A stretch of DNA of 41,657 nt from Acidobacteriota bacterium. GTDB taxonomy: Bacteria > Acidobacteriota > Polarisedimenticolia > J045. Below are positions 8,944 through 32,063 of the stretch, one piece after another. The notes below the pieces were generated by a model. The model saw only the letters and a list, made by a program, of their open reading frames with translations, was not told the origin of the DNA and did no database searches. Position 1 is the stretch's first letter. Every line of letters starts with the position of its first letter. The translations under genes and the position numbers were made by a program. The stretch spans positions 3,542,780 through 3,584,436 of the forward strand of contig CP070706.1 of the NCBI GenBank assembly GCA_020350085.1, read 5' to 3'.

Positions 8944-11900
8944 TCAGGGTCCTTCCTGGCCGCAGGCGTTGGCGGCATTGACGAGGTAGAAGTAGCTGAC
9001 CTCGTTGGCACCGCTGGCTTCGTCGTCGAACTGAGTCGTCTTCGTGTCGCCGAGGAGCTGGAAGCTTTCCGGCTGCGGCTCTTCGGAACGATACGCGTGA
9101 TACTCGGCGGCATCTGCTGGGGCGCTCCAGCTCAAACGAACGTGCGCCCGATTGACCAGCGAGACCGCCAAGTCCGTCACGGCTCCGGGGATCGGTTGAT
9201 CGTTGGTGTCCGTGACCGGTACGTAGACGCTGTTGTCGTCGGTCAGGCCACCGTTGTTCGGACCGGTGCTGCACGTCTCGTCGGTTTCGGCGCGAACGAG
9301 GTAGTAAACCGGCACGTCGAGCGGCGCCGACTCGTCCACGTGGGAGAGCCCGGCGATGCCCGCAGTGACCAGATTGGCTGCCGATGGCGTGAATCCTGGG
9401 CTCGTGTCGCGGTACAGCGCAAAGCTCCCACTCGCCCCGGAACCCCAGGAGAAAGTCTCATTCCACGAAACCGTCACCCCGGTCTCGCCGCACGCGTCGT
9501 TGTCGCGCGCCGAGACGACGCCGGCGAAGGTCGGCGTCTCGAGGCAGCCGCCGCACGCCGCGTAGTCAGGCAAGCTGCCGTCCTTCAAGATGAGATCGTC
9601 GATATTCCAGCCGGAGTACTGCACGGACCCATCAGCCTGCTGCTGGAACTGCAGCCGCACGACCGGTTGACCATCGACCAAGCCGGCCAGATCAGCCGAC
9701 TCCTGAATGAAGCTCGAGTTGCTGATCGTCCCCTCGCTGCGAAACAGCGGGCGACCCGGCCCGGCAAACAGCCACAGCGAGGCCTCGTCGCTGCTGTGCG
9801 TGTTCAGGCGGCGGTAGTAGATCAGCTTGGTGTTGGTCCAGCTCGTTGCATCGAAGTCGGGAGTCGTCGCCCGCTGGGTCGTGTTCGGCTCGTAATCCCC
9901 GCCGAAGCTGCCCTGACCGCTCAGATCGTGGCCGAGCACGTGCTGGTTGTTGTAGGCCTCGAGCGGATCGGACAAGCCCGTCGAACCACCCAACCCTTGC
10001 GGCACGCCGACCTCCCACTCGCCCTCGAGGGTCCACGACCCAGCGCCGTTTTCGAAGTTATCGCGCCAGTACAGCCCGGGAATGTCCCACGTGAAGGCTC
10101 CGAGCGGACTTCCACCGAGATCGGCCACCGCGCTGTTGCCGTGCTGGTCCGTGCTGCGAGCCCGCACGAACAGCTCGCTGCACATCTCGAGTTGATTGAC
10201 CAGCACAGAGTGGTCCGTCACGAGCCCACTGCTCGAAATCGTTTCTCCCAACGCCGGCGTCGTCCCCCACTCGAGAACCGTGTCCGCCGGCTCCTGAGTC
10301 TTCCACGTCACCGTCAGCCGTGCGTCGGTGATCGCCGTCGTGCCCAGCTCGCTGATCACCGGTCCCGCGCAGTCGGCTGCCGCCGTGGCGAACGAGACGC
10401 GCGGAGTGCCGGTCCCGTCATCTTCGTCGCGATAAGTGACGGTGATCGTGTCACCGTCGGCCGTCTGCAACGTGCCGTCGGGCGCGGGCACACCGGCGCT
10501 GGTCGTGATCGCCCCCGTGAATGTGGCGCTGTTCACGTCGGTCTCGGTCGCGACGATCGGCTCCGGATCCGGCTCCGACGAGCTGCTGACCCACAGCGTG
10601 ACGCTGTCGAGCGCTTCGGGATCCAGATTCAGGTCGAGATCCACCACGCGGAAGGTGACGCTGTCGGTGCAGGAGTAGACGGGCTCGTCGATGGTCACCT
10701 GCCCCGCGTGGCACGGCTGCAGACCGTCACCGAAATCGCCGAGTGTCTCGAAGTGATAGTACGACCCGCCGTTGTCGTCGATGGCCGCGTTGCCGAGCAC
10801 GTCGGCGGAGTGGACCTCGTAGTAGTAAATCGTGCACTCGGTGAGGCCCGTCAGCGTGATCGCGTGGTCGATCGTGCGTCCGAAACCGACTTCGCTCTGT
10901 GTGGGGGGGATCGTCTCGCCCCACACGACTTCGCTGTCCGCGAGCTCGTCGGTCGTCCACACGATCGTCCCGCTCACGTCGCTGAGGTCCCGTTCACCAA
11001 CGCCGGTGATCAGCGGCTTTTGGCAGTCCGCGCTGGCTTGGTCTTGCTGGATGACGTTGAGGCCACCCTCTCCGTCGTCGGCATCGATGTACTCCACGAT
11101 GATCGCGTCGTCATGAACCACGGAAACGAGCCCGTCGCCAGCTGCCGGCGGCGTGCCCGTGGTGTAGATCTCGCCGGCGTACTTACCGGAGCCCGGCTTG
11201 GTCTCGGTGAGCGTGACGGTCTCGCGCTCGGTCTCGCTGTCCGACCAGACCTCGACCGTCATCGAGCCGGCTCCCACGTTGCCATCGATGACGCGGATGC
11301 CGACGCGGTGATCACAGCTGTAAAAATCCCTATCGAGCCGGACGCGCCCCGCCGAGGGCTGGATCAGCTGACTCGTGCCGCCGGTCACCACGAGCGCGAA
11401 GGTGGCGTCGTCATCGGGGGTGTCGAGGTAGGCGTCCTGGTTGATCTCGGCCGCTTCGATCTCCACCTTCCAAATGCCGGCCTCCGGGTTGGAGATGAAG
11501 ACGTTTTCGACCGTATCGAGGCCGTTCGGCTCCCCTCCCGGCGTCGAGTATTTGCCCTCGAGCAGCCCATGATTGCCGTGATAGATGGTCCCCGAGGGCG
11601 AGGTCACCTTCAGATTCAGGTCGTTGATGCGGTGCATGGCAGCAGATGTGGTTCCCGGTGGATCGGGGTAGACCATCGTCACCTTGAGCTCGGACTCGCC
11701 GGCGGCGACATCCACGTCGTAGATCGAGAAGTCGCTCAGCTCGAGGATCACCTCCTCGTCGATGATGAAGCTGCTCGCCGCGCGTTCTTTGGCCAGTCGC
11801 GCGCTCGGCCGGCCCCAGCCTTGGTGCACGCGCGTGAGATCGTCGCTCTCGCCGACGAAATCGTACTGCTGGGCATTGTTGATCAGCAGCGCCTTGATCG

Positions 11901-13620
11901 TCGAAAAATGCGGCTGCTTCTCGAAGACCGTCGTGCCCTCGGGATCGGTCTCCCAGACGTTGTCGGCCCACATCTGCACCATCAGGCCCAAAACGCCGGC
12001 GGACTCGGGGGTGGCGGCAGATGTCCCGCCGAAGCTGGACGTGTAGCTGTCGCCGGTCGTCGTGGTATAGATGTTGTCGTACCAGTAGTTGATGTCCGGC
12101 TTGATGCGCCCGTCTTCGGCCGGCCCGATCGACGCGCCAAAGTCCCACTCGTCGTCAGATGTGGTCAGTGTGTCCTTGTGCTTGATTCCGCCAACGCTGA
12201 TGATGTTCTTGGCCCAAGCCTGAGGGCGGCTATCCTGGTTGCCAGCATTGGACTGCGATTGCGTGATGGCAATATCGAGACGCCAGATGATGTCGTCCAT
12301 CTCGTGTGAAACGCTGGTATACGAGAGCGTCCGGGCCGCACCCCAAGAGTTCGTCTGAAAAGACGCGAAGTAGGGATCGTTCTTCAGCTCCTCTGTGTGT
12401 GCGAAGCGATCGCCGAGAAAATCGTAATCCGCGAAAATTCCTTGCGCTTCGGGACAGGGCATGTGTCCCGTCCCCTTCGCCTCCCCGTCGCCGTCGCGGT
12501 TGCCGTTACCGAACACGATGCCGAACGTGCTCGTTCCGTGGCTCGACGTGCTGTTGCCACCGTGAAGAATCAGACCGTCGAAATCCTTGTGCGTCTCCTC
12601 GATGCCGGAGTCGAGCACCTCGCCGCGAACGCCCTGCCCGCAGTAGCCGAAATTGTCCTCGAGCCAGTTCGTGCCGGCGTCCTCACGGACGAGGTCCATG
12701 TCGTTTTCGGGAGCGGACCACAGGTCGATCCAAAGAACGTCGTCGTGACCGGCGATGACCCGCAGCTGCTCACGCGTGACGTTGAGCTCGATGATGTGCC
12801 CATTGGGCCAGTTCTCGACGATCTCCGCGCCGAGGTCTTTGGCCGCCGCCGCGATGCGCTCTTTGCCGGTCTCGCCCCACTCGAGCGCGACGACACGAAC
12901 GCGCTGCGTGGGCGCGGAGAGAAGCTGCTGCTCGTCGAGCCACGCTCGCAGCGGCGGACCGATCCTGTAGCCCGCGTGGTACGGCTCGATCCTCTCAACG
13001 AAGTCGAGCGCCCTGACGAGTGACACCCGCGATGGATCCAAGCGCACGATGTGGGCGTGGTGAGGAACGAACTGAAACAGCTCCGCCCCGAGCTCCACGA
13101 GAGCCGCCCGCCACTCGGGTAGTCCGATCGTGCGGAACTGCACCAGCCACAGCTTGCCGGCTCGCGGCAGTGCCAAGCCCAGCGCCGGGGTGGGCATCGA
13201 CTCGCCCGGAAGAACCTCTGCGTCTCGCAGTTCGAGGGCCCGCTCGAGCGGCCTCGCTTCGGACCACGATGCGCCGCCGTCGCGACTGAAGGCAAACCAG
13301 CGCCGCGCTCGTGCTCCGCTGCCGAGGTCTCCCGCCAGCTCGTCCCATGTTGCGAAGGACGCCTGCGCCGACGGGTCGCGGCCGGTCGGCCCCCTCTGGA
13401 CGAGGGCCGTCGTCTCGCGCAGCAGCACGCGCGCGAGTCCTGCGTGGGGCACGGTGAGCTCGACCCAGACCTTCGTGGCCCGCTCGCCGGTCTCGATCTC
13501 GAGGGTGGGCGGGCCGAATGCGGCGCCGGTTCCCGCGCTGGCCAGTACCACGGGGCCGAACAAAAGCGAGGTCAGGACAAACAAAGCGAGTCGCATCGGG
13601 CGTAGCTGGCGGCAGAGCAT
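8944..13620 (-). CDS. secreted multidomain subtilisin-family (S8) serine protease
   Basis: Catalytic triad contexts VLDSGI, SSHGTSTFGIV and GGTSAATPESAG. Signal MRLALFVLTSLLFGPVVLASA, with ATG at 13618-13620 or 13594-13596. There is an I9-like propeptide and a P-domain-like segment after the catalytic domain. Two copies of a [beta-sandwich ending xVxYxDxDDG + FN3-like] unit follow, then a jelly-roll-like domain and C-terminal FN3-like modules. Confidence 0.9.
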   Translation of the reverse strand: MLCRQLRPMRLALFVLTSLLFGPVVLASAGTGAAFGPPTLEIETGERATKVWVELTVPHAGLARVLLRETTALVQRGPTGRDPSAQASFATWDELAGDLGSGARARRWFAFSRDGGASWSEARPLERALELRDAEVLPGESMPTPALGLALPRAGKLWLVQFRTIGLPEWRAALVELGAELFQFVPHHAHIVRLDPSRVSLVRALDFVERIEPYHAGYRIGPPLRAWLDEQQLLSAPTQRVRVVALEWGETGKERIAAAAKDLGAEIVENWPNGHIIELNVTREQLRVIAGHDDVLWIDLWSAPENDMDLVREDAGTNWLEDNFGYCGQGVRGEVLDSGIEETHKDFDGLILHGGNSTSSHGTSTFGIVFGNGNRDGDGEAKGTGHMPCPEAQGIFADYDFLGDRFAHTEELKNDPYFASFQTNSWGAARTLSYTSVSHEMDDIIWRLDIAITQSQSNAGNQDSRPQAWAKNIISVGGIKHKDTLTTSDDEWDFGASIGPAEDGRIKPDINYWYDNIYTTTTGDSYTSSFGGTSAATPESAGVLGLMVQMWADNVWETDPEGTTVFEKQPHFSTIKALLINNAQQYDFVGESDDLTRVHQGWGRPSARLAKERAASSFIIDEEVILELSDFSIYDVDVAAGESELKVTMVYPDPPGTTSAAMHRINDLNLKVTSPSGTIYHGNHGLLEGKYSTPGGEPNGLDTVENVFISNPEAGIWKVEIEAAEINQDAYLDTPDDDATFALVVTGGTSQLIQPSAGRVRLDRDFYSCDHRVGIRVIDGNVGAGSMTVEVWSDSETERETVTLTETKPGSGKYAGEIYTTGTPPAAGDGLVSVVHDDAIIVEYIDADDGEGGLNVIQQDQASADCQKPLITGVGERDLSDVSGTIVWTTDELADSEVVWGETIPPTQSEVGFGRTIDHAITLTGLTECTIYYYEVHSADVLGNAAIDDNGGSYYHFETLGDFGDGLQPCHAGQVTIDEPVYSCTDSVTFRVVDLDLNLDPEALDSVTLWVSSSSEPDPEPIVATETDVNSATFTGAITTSAGVPAPDGTLQTADGDTITVTYRDEDDGTGTPRVSFATAAADCAGPVISELGTTAITDARLTVTWKTQEPADTVLEWGTTPALGETISSSGLVTDHSVLVNQLEMCSELFVRARSTDQHGNSAVADLGGSPLGAFTWDIPGLYWRDNFENGAGSWTLEGEWEVGVPQGLGGSTGLSDPLEAYNNQHVLGHDLSGQGSFGGDYEPNTTQRATTPDFDATSWTNTKLIYYRRLNTHSSDEASLWLFAGPGRPLFRSEGTISNSSFIQESADLAGLVDGQPVVRLQFQQQADGSVQYSGWNIDDLILKDGSLPDYAACGGCLETPTFAGVVSARDNDACGETGVTVSWNETFSWGSGASGSFALYRDTSPGFTPSAANLVTAGIAGLSHVDESAPLDVPVYYLVRAETDETCSTGPNNGGLTDDNSVYVPVTDTNDQPIPGAVTDLAVSLVNRAHVRLSWSAPADAAEYHAYRSEEPQPESFQLLGDTKTTQFDDEASGANEVSYFYLVNAANACGQEGP

Positions 13621-13779
13621 AAGTCCATCCTCTCGTGAGCACAACGACCGGTTTTCCCCGCTCCTGCGTGCAGGGGCTCGCCGAACATATACGACGCTCG
13701 GCGCCACATCATAAGGGAATCGTCGACCTCGCCCGGCAACACCTTCGCCAAGCGTGCGTTTTCGCCCGATGAGAGCCAA

Positions 13780-14774
13780 TCAGGTGATCGATGCGAGCTC
13801 GGGCGGCACCGGCTTGCAGGGGCCGGTCTCTTGCCACTGGGTGACGTTGTTGCGACCTGCCTGTTTCGCCGTATAGAGCGCTGCGTCCGCGCGCTCGATC
13901 AACGCCGAGGCGCTCGTCGCGTCATCCGGGAAGCTGGCCACGCCGATACTGACGGTGATCGTGCCGAGCGGCTGTGAGGCTTGCCCCGCAAACTCGTGCT
14001 GCTCGACCGCCGCTCGTACTTTCTCGGCGCAAGCAAGGGCGCCGGCTCTTTCCACCTCCGGAATGAGAATGACGAACTCTTCTCCACCGTAGCGAGCCAC
14101 GAGCGAGCACTTGCGCGACTCGCTGCGGAGTATCTCAGCGAGACCACGCAGCACGTCGTCTCCTGCGAGATGTCCGTGAGTGTCGTTGTACTGCTTGAAG
14201 TGGTCCACGTCGATGAACAGCACCGAGAACGGATGGCCGTGCCGCTCCGATCGTGCCAGCTCAGTGTGAAGCACGTCCCAGAAGTGACGTTGATTGTGGG
14301 GGTTCGTCAGCCCGTTTCGATTGACGATCGCCGTCAGAGAGCGATTGACTTCCTCCAGCTTCTCGGCGTTCTTCCGCATCTTGTCGATGAGTTCGCGGCT
14401 CTGTCCCTGAAACTCGATTCTCTCTCGGGCGCGATCGGTGACATCGACGATCTCCTGGATATCGTCGAACGGTTTGACGAGGTAATCCTGGGCGCCACTC
14501 GCAGCGCTTCTTGCGCCGTCGAGATCGACGCGTAGCTGGTCATCAGGACCACGAGCGTGTCGGGCCAATTCGCGCGAACTCGCTCCAGTAGATCGAGCCC
14601 GCTCGTCCCGCCCATCACGATGTCCGTGATGACGAGGGCGAAGCGCTGATTGTCGAACAGCGCGAGCGCCTCCTCGCCGCTGGGGGCGACGGTCACGTCG
14701 TAGCCTTCTGCTTCGAGAACCTCGGAAATGACGGTTCGGAGCGTTGGCTCGTCGTCGACGACGAGGACGCGCAC
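13780..14774 (-). pseudogene. response-regulator receiver + GGDEF diguanylate cyclase, frame broken by an apparent 1-nt deletion
   Basis: ORF 14334..14774 encodes a REC domain (MRVLVVDDEP...ALVITDIVMGG...LVVLMTSYASISTAQEALR) and then drifts into nonsense. ORF 13780..14568, in another frame, resumes with SGAQDYLVKPF (the end of REC), a coiled linker and a GGDEF domain (ARYGGEEF). The frames switch at about 14493-14503 (mRNA CTGCGAGTGGC). Confidence 0.8.
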
Positions 14775-15119: not shown

Positions 15120-15614
15120 TCACAGCTCGGACGGATCGAACGGGTTGTGGCCGCAGAGCGCGACGTAGGTCTCGATCTCGGATCGCGTCGGGATGGACAC
15201 GTTCAGCGGTCGGGCCAGCCCGAGTCCACCCTGCTCGCGCGGGAGGGGCGCACGCCGTAACTGGTCGATCACGGCGATGAATGAGGTATACGGGGCGCGC
15301 TTGCGGGTGTAGACGACGATCGGCTGGTCCGCCCGACCGGCGAGCGCCGGGCCGAGAGCCGCCAGCAGATCCTCGACGGCGAGCGGGAACCCATCCAGTT
15401 CGACGGAGCCGTCCTCGAGGATCGTGATCAACCGCGCCGGGTCCACCGGAGGCTGTGTCGGCTGATGGAGCGGCGGCAACTCGAGGTCCAGCCCCCTCGT
15501 TGCAGAGAATACGGCCGTGAGCATGAAGAAGATGATCAAAAGAAAGGCGATGTCCGCCATCGAAGCGGTACTGATCTGAGCGCCGATCTTCGGCCTGCTA
15601 AGGCAAAGTCGCAT
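15120..15614 (-). CDS. exbD: ExbD/TolR family biopolymer transport protein
   Basis: 164 aa. The N-terminal anchor SMADIAFLLIIFFMLTAVF and the periplasmic domain (VELDGFPLAVEDL...IVVYTRKRAPYTSFIAVIDQL) are typical. No exbB or tonB is adjacent. Confidence 0.85.
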   Translation of the reverse strand: MRLCLSRPKIGAQISTASMADIAFLLIIFFMLTAVFSATRGLDLELPPLHQPTQPPVDPARLITILEDGSVELDGFPLAVEDLLAALGPALAGRADQPIVVYTRKRAPYTSFIAVIDQLRRAPLPREQGGLGLARPLNVSIPTRSEIETYVALCGHNPFDPSEL

Positions 15615-15651
15615 CGTGGCTCCCTAACCCCGATTCTTCCTGAACCCTTCC

Positions 15652-15677
15652 GCCGAAGGTTCATGAATGATCCGGGC
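15652..15677. repeat. copy B of an imperfect direct repeat flanking exbD
   Basis: GCCGAAGGTTCATGAATGATCCGGGC. It overlaps a hairpin (GAACCCTTC-CGCC-GAAGGTTC, about 15642-15662) that lies about 25 nt upstream of the exbD SD. Confidence 0.6.
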
Positions 15678-15825
15678 TAACCGCGACTGTGATCTGAGCA
15701 TGCTCGTGCTCGAGGGCTCGGACAAGACACCGCGCCCTCGTCCGGCGGCGAAGGCACCGCAGCGGGCCCTGCTGAACGAAAGACGTTTGGAACGGGCGAG
15801 ATCGCCCGGCCCGGTGACGGGGCGG

Positions 15826-16884
15826 TCAATCGTCGATTACACGCGTGTTGGGGTAGAAGCTGCTCCAAGCGAACCAGAAGGCCGGCTGGACGACCAGCTC
15901 ATCGAGCCGCGTGCCCTTCTCGGGCCCTGCGATCGCGAGTCCGCGGGCGAGATCCCATCTCGAGGATGTCTGCTTGTCGACGATCGCGGACTCCTGATTC
16001 TCGAACACGAGCGTCACGCCGTCCGAGCGGGCGACGTGCGCTCGCACGCCACCGTCGGGAACCCGCGCGACGACCAGTGGCAGCTCACCGATCTCGCCCT
16101 GAACGAAGCCTCCCGCCGACAATCTCCCGTCTGCCACGGCGACAGCATGGGGCCCGCGGGTGATTCCGTGGACGAGCGCTTTGGCCGGCATGCGCTGTCG
16201 CAACCACTCCGTGCGAAACATCCCTGTCCGCTGCGGATCTTCGAAGTAGCTCTCGTAGCGCGAGTTGGTGATCTCGCGATCCTTGACCAGCAGCTTCGTG
16301 TCCGGATGCTGCTTCACACATCGCTTCCAGCGCGTTTGCATCACAGGAATCATCATCAGGCGAGTGCCCTTCCACGCGCCGTGGAGCGCTTCGCCGGTAA
16401 TGTGGCTCCACAAGGATCCGGTCTGTCGATCCTGCATGATGAGGCTGTTACGCCACAGTTTGCCCGAGACGATGAAATCGAGCGTTCTGCCGTCGACTGT
16501 GCGAACGTGAACCACGCCCGCGTGGCACAGCGGTCACCAGCTGGCCGCAATGGGTGTATCGCCGATCACGTCGTTCACGGTCTCGTGCGCATCGAGCTGC
16601 CACAGCGAATACGCCTTCGCCTCGCCATGGTGCACGATTCCCAGCACCGGTTCCTCAGCACGCATCTGAGCGTGGGCTGCATCCCCGCTGACGAACCAGG
16701 GCTCGAGGATCGCCGGAATCGCCCCAGCTGGCAGAACCGTGTACATCGGCGCGCCATCGAACGTGCCGAACACCTCCGGCTCCGGGCGCTGCGCGAGCGC
16801 GGGCGCAGCGAACCCGGCAAGCAGGAAGGCCACGCCAACAACCCACCGGCCAACGAGTTGAATTCGATCCGTTCGGCTCATCAT
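15826..16884 (-). CDS. DUF3179 domain protein with one in-frame TGA at 16534-16536 (candidate selenocysteine; otherwise a nonsense pseudogene)
   Basis: Track ORFs 16534..16899 and 15826..16515 share one frame. Read-through gives ...VNDVIGDTPIAASW-TGA-PLCHAGVVHVRTVDGRTLDFIVSGKLWRNSLIMQDRQTGSLWSH..., a continuous DUF3179-like sequence. The N-terminal signal is VVGVAFLLAGFAAPALA. The ATG at 16882-16884 is preceded by GGAG and overlaps the upstream stop. Confidence 0.65.
16497..16530 (-). promoter_or_regulatory. candidate bacterial SECIS-like hairpin directly downstream of the in-frame UGA
   Basis: In the mRNA, CUGUGC (16525-16530) pairs with GCACAG (16497-16502). Inside this, CCACG-CGGG-CGUGG (16512-16525) forms a stem with a G-rich apical loop about 14-17 nt after the UGA. 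Confidence 0.35.
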
Positions 16885-17543
16885 CTTCTCCGTTTGCACT
16901 GCGCACGACCGAACGGCTCGGGGTGAGCCTCGATGAGCAAGTCGAGGTCCGCTTCGTCGTCCACGTCACGCAGCGCGGGGAGCAGGGCGATGCGTGCACC
17001 AGCATCCGAGAGTCGCTCGCGCGTGACCTGCAGCGTGCGCTCGGAGCTCCACGGAATGCGCTCAAACGCGCTCGGGAACGGCCGTGCGAGCCCGATGAGG
17101 TAGTAGCCGCCGTCGAGAGCCGGCCCGAGCACGGCGTCGGCGCGCATCAGCTCGTCGAACGCCTCGCCGAGAAGTACGGGCGTCACGTCGACGCAGTCCG
17201 TTCCGATGGCCACCACGCGCCGTGCACCCTCGTCGAAGGCTTCCTCGAAGGCCCCCGACAGTCGCTCGCCGAGATCCCCGGCTCGCTGCGCGACGGCTTC
17301 GAACCGTGGGCCGAGCCACGCGGAGACCTCTTCGATCGCCCCGGGAGGATCGACCACGGCGCGCTGAACCAGCCCCGGCCGCTCGAGCCGGCCCGCCTGT
17401 CGAGCGACCTGTTCGGCGAGCTCACGGTACAGCCGTGCCGCACCGTGTGCGCCGAGCCGAGCGATCAGACGCGTCTTGACCCTTCCCGGCCGCGGTGAGC
17501 GCACGAAGACGAGCAGTAGCTCCGTTCGATCACGATTCGTCAT
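16881..17543 (-). CDS. DUF2064 / TIGR04282-like nucleotidyl- or glycosyl-transferase
   Basis: LLLVFVRSPRPGRVKTRL at the N-terminus, then VVAIGTDCVDV and GPALDGGYYLIGL, all typical of DUF2064. The stop overlaps the DUF3179 start. Confidence 0.8.
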   Translation of the reverse strand: MTNRDRTELLLVFVRSPRPGRVKTRLIARLGAHGAARLYRELAEQVARQAGRLERPGLVQRAVVDPPGAIEEVSAWLGPRFEAVAQRAGDLGERLSGAFEEAFDEGARRVVAIGTDCVDVTPVLLGEAFDELMRADAVLGPALDGGYYLIGLARPFPSAFERIPWSSERTLQVTRERLSDAGARIALLPALRDVDDEADLDLLIEAHPEPFGRAQCKRRR

Positions 17544-17663
17544 CACGCAACAAACGCTCCAGCCCGGAGTCTTCAGGAGCCCTTCGGCTGAAACGCGCGA
17601 GAGTGCACCCGCTGCGGTCTCTTCCGCCGCAAACGTATCGTCCCATCAGGGGGCCGCCACCTC

Positions 17664-18476
17664 TCAGTGGGGCGCGGTCCGCGCACCTTCGGACGAGGAT
17701 GACTCACGAGCGGCCGTTTCGCGAACGCGGGCCAGCCGCTCCGGCGAAGCACCGAGCGCGTCGAGAAGAAGCATCCACTGGTGCCGGAAGAACGTGCAAA
17801 GCAGACCCTCTCGTTCCCAACGACGCGGCGAACTCGGCAACGGCTGATCGAGCAGCACGGGCGGCGAGATGCGGCGCAGTGCTCGCACGAGGTAGACATC
17901 CTCGAACACCGGAACGGCGCGAAAGCCACCGAGCTGTTCGAACGTCTCGCGCCGCACGAACAGACCCTGGTCTCCATACGGGAGCTGGCGCCAGCGTGTG
18001 CGCCACGCGACGAGCCTCTCGATCAAGCGGAATGACCGTCTGCTGCCATGGAGAGCGAAGCGGAAAGCTCCCCAGCTCCTGTCGGGCCGAGTGAGCGCGT
18101 CGGTGATCGCCCGCGCCGCGTCGGCGGAGGGCTCACAGTCGGCGTGCAGGAACCACAACACCTCGCCCCGCGCCTCCCGCGCACCCGCGTTCATTTGAGT
18201 CGCACGCCCGCGGGGGGTCCTCATCGCCCGCACACCGGCCCTGCGGCGCGCCCGCTCGAACGTATCGTCTTGACTGCCGCCATCGCAGACGATGATCTCG
18301 AGCGGCGTCTCGCTGCACGATAGAAGATCGAGCACGCGGTCGATCCGCTGCTGCTCGTTGAGTACCGGGATGATGGTCGTCACTCGCACCGGGACCGCGC
18401 CGAGCTTTCCGTGATCACGATCGTAGCCCAGATGATTCTCAACGACTTCTCCGCTCACCGCGTCCAGGCGAACCAC
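17664..18476 (-). CDS. family 2 glycosyltransferase, TIGR04283-like
   Basis: TTIIPVLNEQQRI...EIIVCDGGSQDDT...RGRATQMNAGAREARGEVLWFLHADCEP. Possible GTG starts at 18476 or 18458; the latter overlaps the upstream stop (GTGA). Confidence 0.8.
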   Translation of the reverse strand: MVRLDAVSGEVVENHLGYDRDHGKLGAVPVRVTTIIPVLNEQQRIDRVLDLLSCSETPLEIIVCDGGSQDDTFERARRRAGVRAMRTPRGRATQMNAGAREARGEVLWFLHADCEPSADAARAITDALTRPDRSWGAFRFALHGSRRSFRLIERLVAWRTRWRQLPYGDQGLFVRRETFEQLGGFRAVPVFEDVYLVRALRRISPPVLLDQPLPSSPRRWEREGLLCTFFRHQWMLLLDALGASPERLARVRETAARESSSSEGARTAPH

Positions 18477-19975
18477 CGTTCGAGCAAGCGCTTGATGCCC
18501 GGTTTGAGGCGAGCTCGGTTGTAGGCGTCACCAATCTTTTTCCAGACCTCGGCCTGCGTCGGGTAGGGATGAATCGTCTTGGCGATGGTTCCCAGACCGG
18601 CGCGCGCGCTCATCACCGCCGTGATCTCGCTGATGATCTCGCCGGCGTGCGCCGCTACGACGCTCGCACCGAGAATCCTGTCGCTCCCCTGCCGTAGATG
18701 GACTTTCGCCATCCCGGCTTGGTCGCCGTCGAGTACCGCGCGATCGACAGCGCCGAACTCCTGCACGATCGTCTGCACGCGCAGACCCCTCTGCTCGGCC
18801 TCGCCGGGAGAGAGACCGACGTGGGCTAACTCCGGATCGGTGTAGGTGCACCACGGTATGATCAGGCCGCTCAGCTTGGCCTTGAACGGGAACAGAGCGT
18901 TCTGAATCACCACGCGAGCCATCGCGTCCGCGGCGTGCGTGAACTGGTACATCGACGCGACGTCGCCGGCGGCGAAGATCTTTCGGTTGGTCGTGCGCAG
19001 ATGATCGTCGACGCGCACCCCGGCGCTCGCATCGTACTCGACACCGGCGGCCTCGAGCCCGAGCCGCTCGACGTTCGGCGCCCGACCGACGGCGAGCAAG
19101 ATTTCGTCAACCTCGACGAGTCGCGCCCCCTCGTCGCTGGAGTAAGCGATCTGCTTCGCATCGCGGCCGCGCGAGACCTGCTCGATCTTCGCTCCGAGCA
19201 CCACGTCGACGCCATCTCGTTCGAGCGCCCGCTGGACACGCTCGGCCAGCTGCGGATCGTCCTTGATCAGGATCCGCGGCATCGTCTCGAGCAGCGTGAC
19301 TCGGGCGCCGAAACGACAGAGCGCTTGCGCCATCTCGCAGCCGATCGGGCCTGCGCCGATGACCGCCAGACGTGGCGGCAGCTCGGTGAGCGAGAACAAG
19401 GTCTCGTTGGTCAGATACCCGGCTTCAGTCAATCCCGGAATCGGCAGCTCGGCCGCGCGCCGTCCCGTCGCGATCACGGCCTTGCTGAATGCCAGTCTCT
19501 TCTCATCGACCGCTAGCGTCTGCAAACCTGTAAATCGAGCCTCACCGAAGAACACGTCCACACCGAGGCTCTGAAAGCGAGCCGCAGAATCGTGCGGGCT
19601 GATCGCTGCCCGCAAACGCCGCATGCGCTCCATCACCGCCGGAAACGCGACCTGAACACCGTCTGGAACGAGCACGCCGTAGTCGCCGGCCTCTCTCACG
19701 CGCGCCACGGCACGAGCGGCGCGAAGCAGTGCCTTCGACGGCACGCAGCCGACATTCAGGCAATCGCCTCCCATGAGGTGACGCTCGATGAGAGCCACCC
19801 GTGCGCCGAGGACTGCCGCTCCTGCCGCCGCGACGAGACCGGCCGTACCACCGCCGATGACGACGAGATTGTAGCGAGATGCGGGCTCTGGATTGACCCA
19901 TTCGGGCGGGTGCACGTGGCCGACGAGTTTGCGGTTGTGCTCGTCGGCAGGTGAGACCAAGACTCGCTCCATCAT
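18455..19975 (-). CDS. class I pyridine nucleotide-disulfide oxidoreductase, MerA-like (no NmerA domain)
   Basis: MMERVLVSPADEHNRKLVGHVHPPEWVNPEP...NLVVIGGGTAGLVAA...GGDCLNVGCVPSK (redox disulfide). A C-terminal dimerisation domain contains HPYPTQAE. AGGAGA lies about 8 nt before the ATG at 19973-19975. The 609 aa track ORF has an Arg/Pro-rich spurious extension. Confidence 0.85.
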   Translation of the reverse strand: MMERVLVSPADEHNRKLVGHVHPPEWVNPEPASRYNLVVIGGGTAGLVAAAGAAVLGARVALIERHLMGGDCLNVGCVPSKALLRAARAVARVREAGDYGVLVPDGVQVAFPAVMERMRRLRAAISPHDSAARFQSLGVDVFFGEARFTGLQTLAVDEKRLAFSKAVIATGRRAAELPIPGLTEAGYLTNETLFSLTELPPRLAVIGAGPIGCEMAQALCRFGARVTLLETMPRILIKDDPQLAERVQRALERDGVDVVLGAKIEQVSRGRDAKQIAYSSDEGARLVEVDEILLAVGRAPNVERLGLEAAGVEYDASAGVRVDDHLRTTNRKIFAAGDVASMYQFTHAADAMARVVIQNALFPFKAKLSGLIIPWCTYTDPELAHVGLSPGEAEQRGLRVQTIVQEFGAVDRAVLDGDQAGMAKVHLRQGSDRILGASVVAAHAGEIISEITAVMSARAGLGTIAKTIHPYPTQAEVWKKIGDAYNRARLKPGIKRLLERWFAWTR

Positions 19976-20303
19976 CACATTCTCTCTCCTGCCTGCTCGC
20001 GCGCTCGCGTCGACTCGACCAACGGGTTTCGTGAACGATTCGGATCGACCCCGACCAGACCATACTCTACGACGAGGCGCGGGCTGCTGGCTTCGAATCG
20101 TCGCGGGAGGCCTCGATCGTCGTGGCGGAGATCGATGACGAATCGCGCCGCGTACGCGCCAGCAGGCAGATGGAATGGCGCCGCCTGACGCCGCCGCGGC
20201 GCGCCGCGAGCCGCTGGGGGCGAGTCCCCCACGTGTCGGCACGGCGGCCAACGGCGGGCGAGGCAGATCGATTCGGGCTAGCATGTCGCTTCGAGGAGGA
20301 GGG

Positions 20304-20540
20304 ATGATCGCTCCTGAGCAGATTCGACAGCGAATCGAGCGCGCCTTTCCGGGTTCCAGCGTGAGCGTGAGGGATCTGACCGGCGGGCAGGATCACTATC
20401 AGGTGGAGATCGTCTCGGAAGCGTTCGCGGGGCTGCCCGCGGTTCAGCGGCATCGGATCGTCTACGCGATCTTCGAGGACGTTCTCGGTGGCGCGCTGCA
20501 CGCGCTTTCTCTCAGAACGCTCGCTCCAGATGAGTCCTGA
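20304..20540 (+). CDS. bolA: BolA family protein
   Basis: 78 aa. VSVRDLTGGQDHYQVEIVSEAFAGLPAVQRHRIVYAI...LHALSL. GGAGGAGGG lies immediately upstream of the ATG at 20304. Confidence 0.85.
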   Translation: MIAPEQIRQRIERAFPGSSVSVRDLTGGQDHYQVEIVSEAFAGLPAVQRHRIVYAIFEDVLGGALHALSLRTLAPDES

Positions 20541-20558
20541 ATCCACAGGAGAACGTTG

Positions 20559-20882
20559 ATGGCTCGCCAAGTCATGGAAGAGATCAAGCAAGAGATCGCC
20601 GCGAACAAGATCATCCTGTACATGAAGGGCACCCCGGAGGCCCCACGCTGCGGCTTCTCGGCGGCCGCGGTGGACGTGCTGCGGCAGATAGGGAACCCGT
20701 TCAAGGGCATCAACGTGCTCGAGGATGCTGAGAAGTGGGCCGCGATCAAGGAGTACTCCGATTGGCCCACGATCCCCCAGCTCTACGTGGACGGTCACTT
20801 CATCGGCGGCTGTGACATCATGCGCGAGATGTTCTTCAAAGGAGAGCTCAAACCGATCATCGAGAAGGCTGTCGGCCACTGA
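20559..20882 (+). CDS. grxD: Grx4-type monothiol glutaredoxin
   Basis: [18 protein letters not shown]...[19 protein letters not shown], with the CGFS active site. GGAGA lies 6 nt before the ATG. Confidence 0.9.
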
Positions 20883-21509: not shown

Positions 21510-22427
21510 TCAGATCGTCCGGCGCTTGGCCTCCGTGCGCAGGGGGGCAAGCCCACTGTCTCGTGCGATGCGCTGCAGACGGCTTGCAGCGCTGCGTGTG
21601 GCGAGATTGCTGATGTAAAAGCGTGTCAAGCCGATCTCGATCAGCCGCCGCAGCGTTTCGCCAGCCACTTCGTCCGCCGACAACCCGCGCTCGTTGAAAT
21701 CTCTCGCCAGCTCGGCAGCCGGCACCGGTAGGAACTGCTGCAACCGAGAGAGTGTCTCGGATCGTGCGCTTCGATAGTAAAACACACCCGCGAACAGCGG
21801 AAGATCGAGCCGCTGGCGCTCCGTCTCTCTTACGAGCTGCTGGAGCGGGCCCAGCTCGTGATGTGAGACGACCTGGGTCAGTACGAAGTCGAGGTCGTCG
21901 CGATGCTCGAGCAGGAACCCGACCTGCTCGGCCGGCTCGCGGTACGGATTGGCCCAACCTCCGAGCAGCATCCGAGGGTGTTCTCGCCGCAGTCGCTTGC
22001 GCAGCTGCCACGCGCGCGGCAAGCAGCGCTCGATGCCGTCGTGTGGGTCGCCGCCGAGAACGACAAGCCCGGGAAATCGTTCCCGGCGCGCGCGCACCGC
22101 GTAGCGCAGGCAGTACTCGAGCGGATGCTTGAGCGTCAAGAAGGGCACGATCCGCTCGCGAACCGCGTCGGTGCCCATGTTCTTGGTCAAGTGGGCGAGG
22201 TTTTCCTCTTCGTCAGTGCCGATCGCGTTGTCCGTCAGAAACACGACCGTGTCTCGCGTCGAGAGGCGGTGCACCGCGTGATAGACGTCGATCCACGCCT
22301 CCATCGCGCGCACGCCGTCGAGATCGCGCCTCGGTGGACGCAGCTCGACCGCGAGCAGCGGGTGCGGATCCGCCAGCCGCTGGCGCAGCCGGAACGGCTC
22401 TTCATGAGGGAGTTGAGGTTCTGTCAC
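21510..22427 (-). CDS. methylenetetrahydrofolate reductase (MetF)-family TIM-barrel protein
   Basis: LLAVELRPPRRDL near the N-terminus, VVLGGDP, and TRFYISNL near the C-terminus resemble MTHFR. The GTG start at 22425-22427 overlaps the upstream stop (GTGA). The track ORF extension to 22658 looks spurious. Confidence 0.7.
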   Translation of the reverse strand: MTEPQLPHEEPFRLRQRLADPHPLLAVELRPPRRDLDGVRAMEAWIDVYHAVHRLSTRDTVVFLTDNAIGTDEEENLAHLTKNMGTDAVRERIVPFLTLKHPLEYCLRYAVRARRERFPGLVVLGGDPHDGIERCLPRAWQLRKRLRREHPRMLLGGWANPYREPAEQVGFLLEHRDDLDFVLTQVVSHHELGPLQQLVRETERQRLDLPLFAGVFYYRSARSETLSRLQQFLPVPAAELARDFNERGLSADEVAGETLRRLIEIGLTRFYISNLATRSAASRLQRIARDSGLAPLRTEAKRRTI

Positions 22428-23389
22428 CTGACATCCCGGACGCTCGTGCCCGCCGGCCATGCGTCGCGGGCTGCTCGCGACGAACGGCCGACCGGCGTGC
22501 GCCCGGTCATTGTAGGCTCTGGCGCCGCCGCCGCGAGACCCCGCACGAGACGCGCCAAGCCGCCGAGATAGGCACCGTGAATTAGGATACGTCCGAACAG
22601 CAGCACCAGTATCGCGCCGAGCGCGATGAATGCGGCCGGCGCCGTGCGCGGATCCCACATCGAGCGCAGCATCGCGGCGGCCGTCATCAGCACCATGTCA
22701 GTCAAGAAGGCCGTCCCCGCGGCGATCCACGGCCGGATCGAGCGCACGACGCGGTCGGCCGACCACAACAGCGCGAGCAGACCGCTGCGCCTCTCGAGAG
22801 CCACGACGCGCGCCCGTGCAAGATCGGCAGCGAGCACCATCGGCGCGACGAGCAACAGCCAAAACAGATCCGGGACCAGACCGTATGCGATCGCCAGACG
22901 CTCGGAGCTGGCTCTCGAGGCGGCGCGCTCGACCTGGGATCCGAGAAAGCCATGAGTGGCGAAGGAGACGAGGCCCACCCACACGAGCGCGGTGATCGCA
23001 ATCGAGATCAGCGCCGGGCTCTGGGCCAGCGCCCGCGCCCAGGCGGAGCGTAGTCCCGGCCACGGTCCCGCGGCGGCACGCATCAGCACGGAGTCTGACC
23101 AGGCGAAAGCGACCATCGCGAGCAGTCCGAGAAGGCCCCACGCTCCGCTCACGGTGTCGCTCCAAGCAAATCTTTCCCAGGGCAGATCGTCGAGCAGGGC
23201 GACGTCGAGCCCGCGCGGGCTCCAAGCGGGATCCACGCGCCACGCCAGCGGCTCGTAAATCGCCGTTGTCGCGACGAGGGTGCCGCAAGCTGCCAGCAGC
23301 GCGACGAGCACGAGCACCGACAGCGCCGCCGTGGGGCGTTGCAGCACGCGCCCCAACGAGGCCGCGAGCGCCGCGAGCACTGCGGTCAT
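22424..23389 (-). CDS. hypothetical polytopic membrane protein
   Basis: Several hydrophobic spans (LSVLVLVALLAACGTLV, AWGLLGLLAMVAFAW, ALISIAITALVWVGLVSF, LFWLLLVAPMVLAA, FIALGAILVLLFGRIL). The ATG at 23387-23389 overlaps the M1 peptidase stop (ATGA). Confidence 0.6.
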   Translation of the reverse strand: MTAVLAALAASLGRVLQRPTAALSVLVLVALLAACGTLVATTAIYEPLAWRVDPAWSPRGLDVALLDDLPWERFAWSDTVSGAWGLLGLLAMVAFAWSDSVLMRAAAGPWPGLRSAWARALAQSPALISIAITALVWVGLVSFATHGFLGSQVERAASRASSERLAIAYGLVPDLFWLLLVAPMVLAADLARARVVALERRSGLLALLWSADRVVRSIRPWIAAGTAFLTDMVLMTAAAMLRSMWDPRTAPAAFIALGAILVLLFGRILIHGAYLGGLARLVRGLAAAAPEPTMTGRTPVGRSSRAARDAWPAGTSVRDVR

Positions 23390-25677
23390 CCGATCCGCCC
23401 CAGCGCCCACAGGCGCTGGACGAGCTGATGAAACAGTCCCACCATGACACGCACTGTCGACTCCCTGTCCGGCGCTGCGGACCACTGGTTGTTGCTCAGA
23501 TCGCGCTCGAACACCCAGCGCCGCCGCGGATCGACACGCACGGCCACCAGGCGGGACGGGTAGCGTCCCTCGATCGCCGTCCACCAGCCCTCACCGTTCC
23601 AGACAACCAGCTCGCGAGACCCGTCCTCGAACGTCAGCTCGATCTCGACCGGAAGCTGCCAGCGGCCGAGCTGGCGAACGACGATGCGACATACTTGCTG
23701 CGGGACGCGTGTCGGGTGTGAGCCACCGTCGTCCCCCGGCTCTTTTTCGAGCGACGGCCCTTCGGAGCAGTGCACGGGATCGACGGCGTAATCGGCGTAC
23801 CCAGCCACACGCCATACCTGCTCGAAGTAGTGCGCAGCATCGAGACCGATCGGCAGCGCGGAGGGATCGCGCTCGCCGCGCTGTTTCATCTCCCGAGAGA
23901 CGGCCGATGCAGCATGGATGAAATCCTCGGGGCGCGCATGAGCCAGCCAGTGCTGGCGCGCGTAGCGCCGCAGTGCGCGGAATACGGCACGCTCGCCGGC
24001 GACTCTCCGGTAAGCTTCGAGCGTCAGCGCGGCGAGCCGGTAGGTGTGCATCCGATAAGTCTCGCGCTCACCGTAGCTCCAGCCTCGCCGCCAGACGACG
24101 TCGAGCCCGGCGACCGGCTTCCATTGGCGTCGCTCGAGCCACGGGAACCCGATCGATTCGCCGTAGTACGTCAGAGGCGGTAGATCGACGAGATACCGCG
24201 CGGGTCGACCCGTACCCAAGCCGTGCAGTGTGCCGTTTCCGGCCGCGCCGACGAGCCCGAGCGGCCCGGGCGCGGCGTCCGGCTCGATCAACGGCACGGC
24301 TCGGTACTGCCACGGGGAGAACGAGCTGACCAGCCGATCCTCACCAAAACCCCACAGTAAGGCCGTCGACTCGGCGAACGTGTTGAACCCTTCGTCGAGA
24401 AACGGGTTCTCGAATTCGTCGTTGGCGACGATGCCGTAGAACCACTGATGCCCGACCTCGTGGACGGTCACCGCCTCGGGGTTGAGCCGCCCGCTGGGCG
24501 TCAACAGTCGCGCGCCGGCGGTGATCACCATCGGGTATTCCATGCCGCCGGCTCGACGTGCGTCGTGTTGCGGATCGACCGCTCTCAACACCGGATACGG
24601 ATAGGCGCCGAAAGCGCGACCGAACCAGACGAGTCCGACCTCCATCGCGCGCAAATGGCGCTCGGCCAGGTGTTGGTGCTCGGGCTGGAGGTAGACCTCG
24701 AGCGTCACGTCGCGCAGCAACATCTCGGCTCCCGTCGCCTCGGGACCGAGCAGCGCGAGCCAACGCGCTTCCTCGAGCGGATCGCGGTGCTGCCCGCCGC
24801 GAAAGCGTCGCCCCACGACGACGAAATCGGGATCCGCGAACCAAGCGAAGTCGTGAACCTCTCGTGCCTCGTACGTCACGGAGTATCGTTCCGTATCGTC
24901 GCGGGGTGTCTCGTTGATCCGCACGCCGGTTGCGGCGACTTTCCCTCGGTACTGCTCGGGCAGATTCAGCGTCACGCTGTAACGGCCGTAGTCGGCATAG
25001 AACTCGGTCAGCCGATGAAACTGGGGACAGTTCCAGCGCGCCGGAGCGGATGGCGTCTCGCGCGGCGGCTCGAACACGCCCAGTTTGGGAAACCACTGAG
25101 CCGCGGCGATGAAATCACCGGCACGGCCCGTCCGCGCGCGGATCGCCGGCAGGCGGCTCTTGAACTCCAGCTCGACCGTGATCGCCCCGCCGGGCGCGAC
25201 AGCCTCGGGAAGCGCGAGTCTCGCGACGGTCCGGTCCTCGACGTTCCCGTCGTCCGGCGCCGTCGTGCTCAGACGGGCGCTCCAGTCCTCTCCGCCCGGA
25301 CCGCTGACCCTCGTCACCTCGATGCCGCCGAAAGATCCCGCCTCGCTCAGCGATCGGCCTGAAGGGGGGCTCGTGCGGGTCAATCCTTCCAGCATCCAGG
25401 TCGTGCGTCGATGCGCGAACGCGTTGAGGTAGAGACGGAACCACAGCTCCTGAGTCGGACTGGACGTGGTGTTCTTCCAGCTCACTCGCTCTCGTGCGTG
25501 AATCGAGCCGGTTTCTGCGTCGTAACGCGCCTCGATCGTGTACCCGACGCGATGCTCGTCGGAGCGCGGGCTGGCGCGCACGCCGAGGCACGCCGCGAGC
25601 AGGACCGTCGAGACAACGAGTGCTGCAGCCGCGGCACCGCGTCGTGCCCCCGCTGCGGAAAACGCGACCTTTTTCAT
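23386..25677 (-). CDS. M1 family metallopeptidase (aminopeptidase N-like), probable lipoprotein
   Basis: VHEVGHQWFYGIVANDEFENPFLDEGFNTF (HExxH plus E). The signal carries a lipobox LLAAC. ATG at 25675-25677; the track starts at TTG 25686. Confidence 0.9.
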   Translation of the reverse strand: MKKVAFSAAGARRGAAAAALVVSTVLLAACLGVRASPRSDEHRVGYTIEARYDAETGSIHARERVSWKNTTSSPTQELWFRLYLNAFAHRRTTWMLEGLTRTSPPSGRSLSEAGSFGGIEVTRVSGPGGEDWSARLSTTAPDDGNVEDRTVARLALPEAVAPGGAITVELEFKSRLPAIRARTGRAGDFIAAAQWFPKLGVFEPPRETPSAPARWNCPQFHRLTEFYADYGRYSVTLNLPEQYRGKVAATGVRINETPRDDTERYSVTYEAREVHDFAWFADPDFVVVGRRFRGGQHRDPLEEARWLALLGPEATGAEMLLRDVTLEVYLQPEHQHLAERHLRAMEVGLVWFGRAFGAYPYPVLRAVDPQHDARRAGGMEYPMVITAGARLLTPSGRLNPEAVTVHEVGHQWFYGIVANDEFENPFLDEGFNTFAESTALLWGFGEDRLVSSFSPWQYRAVPLIEPDAAPGPLGLVGAAGNGTLHGLGTGRPARYLVDLPPLTYYGESIGFPWLERRQWKPVAGLDVVWRRGWSYGERETYRMHTYRLAALTLEAYRRVAGERAVFRALRRYARQHWLAHARPEDFIHAASAVSREMKQRGERDPSALPIGLDAAHYFEQVWRVAGYADYAVDPVHCSEGPSLEKEPGDDGGSHPTRVPQQVCRIVVRQLGRWQLPVEIELTFEDGSRELVVWNGEGWWTAIEGRYPSRLVAVRVDPRRRWVFERDLSNNQWSAAPDRESTVRVMVGLFHQLVQRLWALGRIG

Positions 25678-27988: not shown

Positions 27989-28061
27989 GGTCGCGATGGC
28001 TATACTCGCGGGCTTTCCGCTCCCGCTCGGTCGGGGGGCGATGACGAGAGGAGCCGTTCGT

Positions 28062-29039
28062 ATGAGCCGAGCCGCCATCCTGCCCCGAAAAGCAGGCGCC
28101 CGCACACCCCAGATCGGTCGTTACGGCGTGACCGCTGTTGCGGCTGGCCTGCTCTCGCTGTCGAGCGGCGGGCTGCTGCTCGCCCAGAATCCCGAAGAAG
28201 TCGAGGTTCGTGTGACGCACGTCGCCGGGACGGTGCACATGCTGGAGGGTGCCGGAGGAAACGTCGGTGTCTCTGCCGGACCGGACGGGGTGCTGCTCGT
28301 GGACGACCAGTTCGACTGGATGGCGGACAAGATCCGCGCTGCGATTGCGAAGCTCGGCTCCGACAAGCCGCGCTTCGTGCTCAACACGCACTGGCACGGC
28401 GATCACACGGGAGGCAATGCCAGCTTTGCCGCCAACGGAACGCTCATCGCTCATCGCAGGGTCCGCGAGCGGCTGGCCGAAGGTCTGCGACGCGATTCGG
28501 GACGCGAAACCCCTCCCGCTCCGCCCGAGGCGCTGCCGGTGATCTCCTTCGACGAGTCGCTCACGGTGCACTTCAACGGCGAAACGATCGTCGCGCTTCA
28601 CTTTCCGCACAGTCATACGGACGGTGACAGCGTGATCTACTTCGAGCAAGCCAACGTCGTGCACATGGGCGATCTGTTCTTCTCCGGCCGGTTCCCGTTC
28701 ATCGACCTCGAAAGCGGGGGCAGCGTCGAGGGGCTGATTCACGCCGTTGAGAGTGTGCTGGCACGCATTCCGGCGGACGCCAAGCTGATTCCAGGTCACG
28801 GGCCGCTCTCGAAGCCGAGCGACCTCGAGGCGTACCACGAGATGCTGATCTCCACGAGCGCCCTCGTCCGCCAGCAGATCGCTTCGGGCAAATCGCTCGA
28901 GGAAATCCAGCAGCTCGGCCTGGGCGAGCGCTGGCAGAGCTGGTCGTGGCAGTTCATCGACGAGCAGCGATTCATCGAGACCCTCTATCGCGGTCTCGCG
29001 GGACAGCCCTTCCCCGCCGGGTCGTACAAGCAGCATTAA
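28062..29039 (+). CDS. secreted MBL-fold metallo-hydrolase
   Basis: NTHWHGDHTGGN (HxHxDH), HSHTDGD and PGHGP. There is a signal-like N-terminus. GAGAGGAG lies 8 nt before the ATG at 28062; the track ORF starts at 27987. Confidence 0.85.
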   Translation: MSRAAILPRKAGARTPQIGRYGVTAVAAGLLSLSSGGLLLAQNPEEVEVRVTHVAGTVHMLEGAGGNVGVSAGPDGVLLVDDQFDWMADKIRAAIAKLGSDKPRFVLNTHWHGDHTGGNASFAANGTLIAHRRVRERLAEGLRRDSGRETPPAPPEALPVISFDESLTVHFNGETIVALHFPHSHTDGDSVIYFEQANVVHMGDLFFSGRFPFIDLESGGSVEGLIHAVESVLARIPADAKLIPGHGPLSKPSDLEAYHEMLISTSALVRQQIASGKSLEEIQQLGLGERWQSWSWQFIDEQRFIETLYRGLAGQPFPAGSYKQH

Positions 29040-31863: not shown

Positions 31864-32063
31864 GGTCACCTCCAAAGCCGCGTTCGGGCCCCTGTGCTCG
31901 AAACGGGGCCTTTCGCCCGAGTGGAGAGCAAGCGGCATGCCATGAGCTGTCCGCCGACCACTAGCCGGCGTGCAGAGCAAAGCCTTTTGTTTGCAATGTG
32001 TTGAGAACGCAGCCCGAGTCACTCGAGAACGAGCTGCCCACCCTGGAGGACGCGCGAGACGCC

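Follow-up and report, generated by a model that had tools for sequence, protein, structure and literature searches.

We analysed a 41.6-kb stretch of DNA (here called the window; GC content about 65%) from a 4.1-Mb contig of an Acidobacteriota metagenome-assembled genome (MAG), in which the minus strand carries four open reading frames (ORFs) head to tail: a pyridine-nucleotide disulfide oxidoreductase (the reductase), a GT2 glycosyltransferase, a DUF2064 protein and a DUF3179 protein whose frame is crossed by a single TGA, a candidate selenocysteine (Sec) codon (Table 1). An earlier note on this DNA had reported these four genes with overlaps at two junctions; all four ORFs lie where it placed them and both overlaps exist, but the one between DUF2064 and DUF3179 is 4 nt long, not 19. 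At that junction the DUF2064 stop codon (TGA, 16883-16881) overlaps an ATG (16884-16882), and because of this ATGA overlap and a GGAG 4 nt upstream (16891-16888), ATG 16884 is the likely start of DUF3179, not GTG 16899. As read from the sequence, the overlap should couple DUF2064 to DUF3179 translationally. The reductase stop codon (18457-18455) gives a 22-nt overlap if GT2 starts at GTG 18476 and a 4-nt overlap (GTGA) if it starts at GTG 18458, and the reductase itself has AGGAGA upstream of its GTG/ATG (19978/19975). Each of the four genes is terminated by TGA, which makes UGA a normal stop codon here, and the GC content at third codon positions (GC3) is of coding type in all four intact ORFs. 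The hairpin past the DUF3179 stop likely marks the end of the operon; a weak terminator-like hairpin (17569-17557) also lies inside the GT2-DUF2064 spacer. Throughout the window, tblastn and Pfam/NCBIfam sweeps found no radical S-adenosylmethionine (radical-SAM) gene, as the earlier note had said, and no DUF547; profile sweeps and tblastn found no ArsS or ArsM-like ORF; and the Pfam/NCBIfam sweeps found no merR, merT or merP.

Table 1. Features of the four-gene unit, in window coordinates
Feature	Position	Strand	Basis
FAD/NAD(P)H pyridine-nucleotide disulfide oxidoreductase (PRK06370.1-3)	18455..19975	-	NF004991, Pfam
GT2 glycosyltransferase, TIGR04283 family	17664..18476	-	TIGR04283, PF00535
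GT2-DUF2064 spacer, 117 nt	17547..17663	-	synteny with L093, L090, L010, L012
DUF2064/TIGR04282 protein, CofC-like nucleotidyl- or glycosyl-transferase fold	16881..17546	-	TIGR04282, PF09837, PDB 3cgx
DUF2064/DUF3179 ATGA start/stop overlap	16881..16884	-	read from sequence
DUF3179 selenoprotein precursor, 352 codons including UGA	15826..16884	-	PF11376
Candidate UGA selenocysteine codon of DUF3179	16534..16536	-	aligned with first Cys of CPLC in Cys-form homologues
SECIS-type hairpin GCGGGCGUG-GUU-CACGUUCGC	16501..16521	-	RNAfold, covariation
Terminator-like hairpin, about 70 nt past DUF3179 stop	15732..15757	-	consensus scan only: 9 pairs, 6 GC

The DUF3179 frame consists of two in-frame ORFs (16534-16899 and 15826-16515) split by one TGA, and translation of 15826-16899 gives IAASW-stop-PLCHAGVVHV across the split, that is, AASW-U-PLC-HAG with the TGA where CPLC has its first Cys. 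With C substituted for U, the protein matches PF11376 in one stretch across the TGA (231.4 bits; residues 60-352 on profile positions 3-292 of 292). Searching 5.8 billion proteins, we retrieved 311 relatives of DUF3179. The best 120 include more than 100 fragments of 227-233 aa that cover the C-terminal 65% of the query, fragment calls that we attribute to gene callers restarting just past the candidate Sec codon, and the few full-length homologues have W-C-P-L-C-H at this position. Using the DNA around the fragment homologues together with a metagenome scan, we found TGA at the first-Cys codon in 49 rows, TGC or TGT in 27, and TAA or TAG in none.

The sequence past the TGA can form a hairpin with the anatomy expected of a bacterial selenocysteine insertion sequence (SECIS), in which a 7-bp helix begins 13 nt past the UGA and closes a 5-nt loop in which a nearly invariant U follows an invariant G. 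We compared 45 distinct TGA forms (window included) with 27 Cys forms in an ungapped alignment of 54 nt around the codon. In the TGA forms 96.5% of helix cells are paired, with compensatory double changes at four of the seven pairs (33 cells), and this pairing and covariation was matched by 0 of 500 shuffles and by no slid register; by contrast, the same columns of the Cys forms are paired in 49.2% of cells and show no excess covariation. In some compensating pairs the change on one arm is synonymous while its counterpart replaces Ala with Ser, which argues for selection on the RNA and not on the protein alone. Support for the hairpin comes from covariation and not from energy, since the minimum free energy of the 76 nt past the UGA is not significant (z = -0.75); Rfam, which is uninformative for bacterial SECIS elements, returned no SECIS or riboswitch family for the whole window at gathering thresholds or for 15500-20400 at E<=5. 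Because dozens of metagenomic homologues share the TGA position and the covarying hairpin, the arrangement goes beyond chance, and the case for UGA 16534-16536 as the Sec codon of a Sec-Pro-Leu-Cys active-site motif is strong. The earlier proposal of a DUF3179 protein with a candidate Sec thus agrees with the profile score, with TGA as the only stop at this codon and with a covarying hairpin specific to the Sec form.

Two reviews already count DUF3179, in UxxC/T form, among the selenoprotein families (PMC9312934, PMC13188914), so the window protein, with the same PF11376 domain and Sec at the first residue of UxxC, is a further member of a known family and an annotation correction. The passages of these reviews that we consulted give no function or gene context, whereas here the gene appears coupled to a TIGR04282 gene in a reductase/transferase operon, and its SECIS hairpin is documented with covariation. 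The deposited NCBI annotation of the window gene, which holds only a 229-aa C-terminal fragment (P0001; 15826-16515), is wrong. More generally, Sec-form DUF3179 genes in NCBI, JGI and ENA are annotated from the C-terminal ~229 aa alone, which concerns more than 100 of the best 120 clusters; the N-terminal third, with signal peptide and active site, is either a separate annotation or missing. Locus L009 (codon 8340-8342) and protein P0012 hold full-length DUF3179 in which Glu (GAA) or Arg takes the Sec/Cys position, and L009 keeps six of the seven SECIS-helix pairs; these forms suggest that Sec was lost recently, or that assembly or annotation introduced an artefact.

The N-terminus of DUF3179 reads as a signal peptide (MMSRTDRIQLVGRWVVGVAFLLAGFAAPALA, followed by Q; about 16792-16884), with predicted cleavage between AAPALA and QRPEP, and typical signal peptides also start the DUF3179 homologues. 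In other lineages, DUF3179 genes of Sec and Cys form stand in operons with TlpA and CcdA, and TlpA-CcdA is the usual periplasmic reducing route. Because of the signal peptides and these contexts, the U/CxxC pair would lie outside the cytoplasm, where the usual transmembrane route would keep it reduced; the TlpA-CcdA operons point to a periplasmic, reductant-dependent protein. The window protein resembles the CxxC clients of TlpA/CcdA (DsbD_TM) systems in its signal peptide and two-residue redox or metal motif, but neither TlpA nor CcdA adjoins it, and the modelled DUF3179 fold is not thioredoxin-like. An AlphaFold model of the Cys homologue P0003 (predicted local distance difference test, pLDDT, 91; predicted template modelling score, pTM, 0.88) had no whole-chain match in the PDB by Foldseek, with local Rieske-fold similarity only, and a PDB profile search likewise gave weak Rieske matches only; neither result points to a function. 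Since the residue after CxxC varies (H, Y, F, S, G, N) and the homologues conserve no further Cys/His pair, we would not expect a Rieske cluster.

The reductase passes the NF004991 model for PRK06370.1-3 end to end (774.4 bits against a cutoff of 620; residues 3-505 on profile positions 4-507 of 509), contains the Pfam domains Pyr_redox_2 and Pyr_redox_dim and a CLNVGC redox centre, and lacks a signal peptide. It had been described as MerA-like, which holds for the fold and the redox centre: it shares with MerA (TIGR02053; PDB 1zk7, 5x1y) the class I flavoprotein disulfide reductase fold, the CxxxxC motif and the dimerisation domain, and its best solved relatives are MerA proteins (5x1y, 262 bits). 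The MerA identity does not hold. The score against the MerA equivalog TIGR02053 is 376.5 bits, under the cutoff of 454.45, and alignment to the MerA structures shows no C-terminal Cys pair ('HPYPTQAE...WFAWTR'); because of these two findings the protein is MerA-like in fold only and not MerA. It also differs in lacking NmerA, in having His-Pro-Tyr where MerA has Phe/Ala-Pro-Tyr, and in an amphipathic C-terminal tail of about 25 residues, with a Cys-free end (GDAYNRARLKPGIKRLLERWFAWTR). Orthology to Synechocystis Slr1849 ('MerA-like') is possible. As had been proposed, both transferases score above the curated cutoffs of their families: GT2 passes TIGR04283 (239.1 bits against 182) and also PF00535, and the DUF2064 protein passes TIGR04282 (195 bits against 134), scores 114 bits against PF09837, matches PDB 3cgx (209 bits with profile A1) and resembles CofC-type nucleotidyl-transferases.

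To place the unit in its genomic context, we surveyed 80 genome loci from many phyla around TIGR04282 homologues, identifying neighbours within 10 kb by tblastn and clustering. A TIGR04283 GT2 was present at about 37 of the 80, a PRK06370-type reductase at 15 (9 of them at >=47% identity), ArsS (TIGR04167) at 14, DUF547 at 12, a VTT/DedA-type membrane protein at 10 and an ArsM-like methyltransferase at 8. DUF3179 was found at none, so that the reductase (15/80) is a regular member of the TIGR04282 neighbourhood and DUF3179 (0/80) is not. The four-gene unit belongs to the radical-SAM- or 'arsenosugar'-associated neighbourhood to which the earlier note had assigned it. Like the known neighbourhood of ArsS, ArsM, TIGR04282 and TIGR04283, it has both transferases above cutoff, and the sampled genomes place these transferases with ArsS, ArsM-like proteins, the same reductase family, VTT and DUF547; unlike that neighbourhood, the window lacks ArsS, ArsM and any radical-SAM gene, and DUF3179 is an extra member in an Acidobacteria lineage only.

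The closest relatives share the order reductase, DUF547, GT2, a fusion of a radical-SAM/SPASM protein with an ArsM-like methyltransferase, and DUF2064. This full cluster occurs without DUF3179 in the Nitrospirota loci L010 and L012 and in the metagenome locus L090, and it is followed by DUF3179(Sec) in the Acidobacteria MAG locus L093 (GCA_003696075.1) and a matching Logan contig, L175. Both L093 and L175 share the ATGA overlap of the window (8702/8705 and 3431/3434), the W-TGA-PLC motif and the hairpin, and the L093 protein matches P0005, the closest homologue of the window DUF3179 (64% identity). Because these two loci carry the same arrangement, the DUF2064-DUF3179(Sec) pair is inherited and not unique to this genome. 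Where the relatives have the fusion gene, the window has its 117-nt GT2-DUF2064 spacer. The gene content suggests that DUF3179(Sec) is an addition to the end of a conserved cluster in an Acidobacteria lineage, and that the window lost, or never had, the fusion and DUF547. A different subset, VTT-reductase-DUF547-DUF2064, is found at L094.

The fusion family itself (792 matches, about 820 aa) joins a radical-SAM/SPASM half to an ArsM-like methyltransferase half and has a conserved Cys-Cys end. It is uncharacterised and common in Nitrospirota and Acidobacteria, and it stands in for ArsS and ArsM in these clusters; examples lie at L093:5547-7997 and in L090, L010, L012, L117, L122, L123 and L175. 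We considered whether the 117-nt spacer might be a relic of this gene, as an in-frame peptide in it ends in 'CC' like the fusion family, but 190 of 300 shuffles score equally and the candidate was rejected.

Viewed from the DUF3179 side (84 loci, 45 of them with >=6 kb of sequence), reductase orthologues of 55-67% identity adjoin DUF3179 or lie within 5 kb of it in the window, L093, L005/L176, L117 and L122/123, and more distant Pyr_redox_2 genes are near it in five or six further loci. The fusion adjoins DUF3179 in L093, L117 and L122/123, with the order DUF3179(Cys)-reductase-fusion in the last two, and DUF547 flanks it in L093, L151, L160 and L172. The earlier note had asked whether DUF3179, the transferases and the reductase recur together in other genomes, and the answer is divided: DUF3179 recurs by the reductase orthologues, but not, in the 80 TIGR04282 loci, by the transferases. 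Recurrence of reductase, fusion and DUF547 beside Sec and Cys subclades of DUF3179 appears to exceed chance adjacency for single-copy families, and since it extends over several lineages, a functional link between DUF3179 and these proteins is plausible. Other frequent neighbours are a histidine kinase with an OmpR-type regulator, an ECF sigma factor, a sulfatase, Crp, TlpA-like redoxins and CcdA/DsbD_TM. Operons of a TlpA-like redoxin, CcdA/DsbD_TM and DUF3179(Sec) occur at L140:6142-8605 and in L113, L115 and L125; L140 has a second DUF3179 copy on the opposite strand (11441-12583), and some DUF3179 genes of these operons carry a second, degenerate 'D-P-x-S' motif downstream in frame. In L001-L004 and L009, a small SAM-dependent methyltransferase (Methyltransf_11/25) lies directly beside DUF3179, in Sec and Cys/Glu forms, so that pairing with a methyltransferase recurs in these lineages too.

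Together, these results identify the four-gene unit as a trimmed copy of a widespread, uncharacterised cluster. We infer that this cluster handles a thiophilic metalloid or chalcogen, and assign the reading as a whole a probability of about 0.5. The substrate would be of the arsenic type, with selenium or tellurium possible. Where present, the ArsM-like/radical-SAM enzyme may make an organo-metalloid by forming an organo-element bond, which DUF2064, with its nucleotidyl-transferase fold, and GT2 would then conjugate, while the reductase would provide cytoplasmic dithiol reducing power drawn from NAD(P)H. Outside the cytoplasm, DUF3179 could use its selenolate-thiolate pair to act on the substrate, or on a partner protein, by binding or reduction, without being a direct substrate of the reductase, and DUF547 probably acts in the envelope too. 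A common small-molecule substrate or pathway for the reductase and DUF3179 is plausible. In this genome, the radical-SAM and methyltransferase genes might lie elsewhere, or the unit might handle pre-formed compounds. We also put forward, tentatively and as an unlikely conjecture in its full form, that DUF3179 (Sec or Cys) and the PRK06370.1-3 reductase are parts of an undescribed organo-metalloid or chalcogen pathway around the fusion, DUF547, TIGR04283 and TIGR04282, distinct from ArsS/ArsM, of which the window would hold a trimmed salvage or detoxification version with an extracytoplasmic selenolate-thiolate capture or redox step.

Several observations weigh against this reading as a whole. 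Compared with the closest full clusters, the window is missing both presumed core enzymes, DUF547 and the fusion, and among the best 120 fusion homologues no close orthologue is assigned to this genome, a weak negative. The fusion itself departs from the arsenic enzymes: its radical-SAM half belongs to the SPASM type, unlike ArsS TIGR04167, and its methyltransferase half, at 234 bits on PRK11873, falls under the 263-bit cutoff for ArsM. DUF3179 is missing from all TIGR04282 loci sampled, and its neighbours vary widely. In the literature searched there was no tested function for the reductase, GT2, DUF2064, DUF3179 or DUF547, nor any functional study of TIGR04282, TIGR04283, DUF2064, the 'selenodomain', or DUF547 together with mercuric reductase. 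The term 'arsenosugar' in the NCBIfam names comes from neighbourhood, not from assay.

A first alternative is that DUF3179 is a general envelope protein for thiol/selenol redox or metal handling that happens to lie downstream of an unrelated transferase/reductase cluster. Its absence from the TIGR04282 loci and its heterogeneous neighbours (kinase and regulator, ECF sigma factor, TlpA, CcdA, sulfatase, Crp and methyltransferases) are what such adjacency would look like, but the ATGA overlap is conserved in two Acidobacteria lineages, and the NF004991-type reductase, the fusion and DUF547 recur by DUF3179 in Sec and Cys subclades, in apparent excess over chance. We consider this account doubtful.

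The earlier note had favoured another explanation, in which a DUF3179 selenoprotein stands where a radical-SAM selenoenzyme would otherwise be, with its selenenylsulfide recycled directly by the MerA-like reductase. This model would fit the UxxC motif, which is typical of redox proteins, the occurrence of reductase and DUF3179 together in at least five lineages, and the lack of a radical-SAM gene in the window; L093 and L175, however, hold both the fusion and DUF3179(Sec), so the one does not occupy the slot of the other, and the reductase is not MerA. Direct recycling is topologically doubtful and thus unlikely, because DUF3179 is apparently exported, the reductase carries no signal peptide, and other Sec-form operons place DUF3179 beside TlpA-CcdA. 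We regard the combined model as improbable.

Similarly improbable is a decaying remnant, with genes left non-functional after the loss of DUF547 and the radical-SAM methyltransferase. Both are present in all four of the closest full clusters and missing here, and the search of the best 120 fusion homologues fits such a loss, but all four ORFs are intact, score well above their family cutoffs and have coding-type GC3, the UGA has kept its SECIS hairpin and DUF3179 its ATGA coupling, and L094 is another viable subset. Mercury resistance, with the reductase as MerA and DUF3179 as a MerP-analogous periplasmic Hg(II)-binding protein, we rejected as highly improbable on the failed MerA cutoff and the missing Cys pair, with neither an NmerA domain nor merR/T/P in the window to set beside the MerA structures among the relatives of the reductase and a U/CxxC pair that could bind Hg(II).

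With the trimmed-cluster reading preferred, the novelty lies in combination: every component family is already known, as is Sec in DUF3179, whereas the recurrent link of DUF3179 to the reductase/radical-SAM-methyltransferase/DUF547 neighbourhood, the SPASM-type fusion in place of ArsS and ArsM in the closest relatives, and reduced clusters like that of the window are absent from the literature searched. The transferase, reductase and DUF547 families are widespread in Cyanobacteria, Nitrospirota, Acidobacteria, Planctomycetes and Bacteroidota and were named for arsenosugar synthesis by neighbourhood. A recurring exported UxxC/CxxC protein, a fusion instead of ArsS and trimmed clusters sharpen hypotheses on what this neighbourhood does, and provide a testable handle on the function of the DUF3179 selenoprotein family.

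Other features of the window lie outside the unit. Divergent from the reductase and with a common upstream region, a BolA-like gene and a monothiol glutaredoxin gene (motif CGFS) occupy 20175-20882 on the plus strand; their co-regulation with the reductase is possible. A further pyridine nucleotide-disulfide oxidoreductase gene (29083-30198, plus strand), with an MBL-fold gene (27987-29039) upstream, scores 289 bits against TIGR03169 ('Nterm_to_SelD'), just under the cutoff of 310. Members of this family are often fused to SelD or neighbour it, and the gene may be a hint of selenium use, the only one in the window, which contains no tRNA gene. At 13780-14774 (minus strand), a response-regulator receiver ORF (14334-14774) overlaps a GGDEF ORF (13780-14568) in a different frame, and the GGDEF frame encodes the last part of the receiver domain ('GAQDYLVKPF'). 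The pattern resembles a frameshift within a single response regulator-GGDEF gene, through a pseudogene or an assembly error. The 1611-aa ORF at 8944-13779 (minus strand) has a subtilase S8 domain (residues 388-656) as its only recognisable domain, and its other ~1300 residues have no Pfam match at E<=0.001. Four candidate ORFs of 271-386 aa, all on the minus strand (21510-22658, 22424-23584, 30205-31020 and 31138-32022), match neither Pfam nor NCBIfam.

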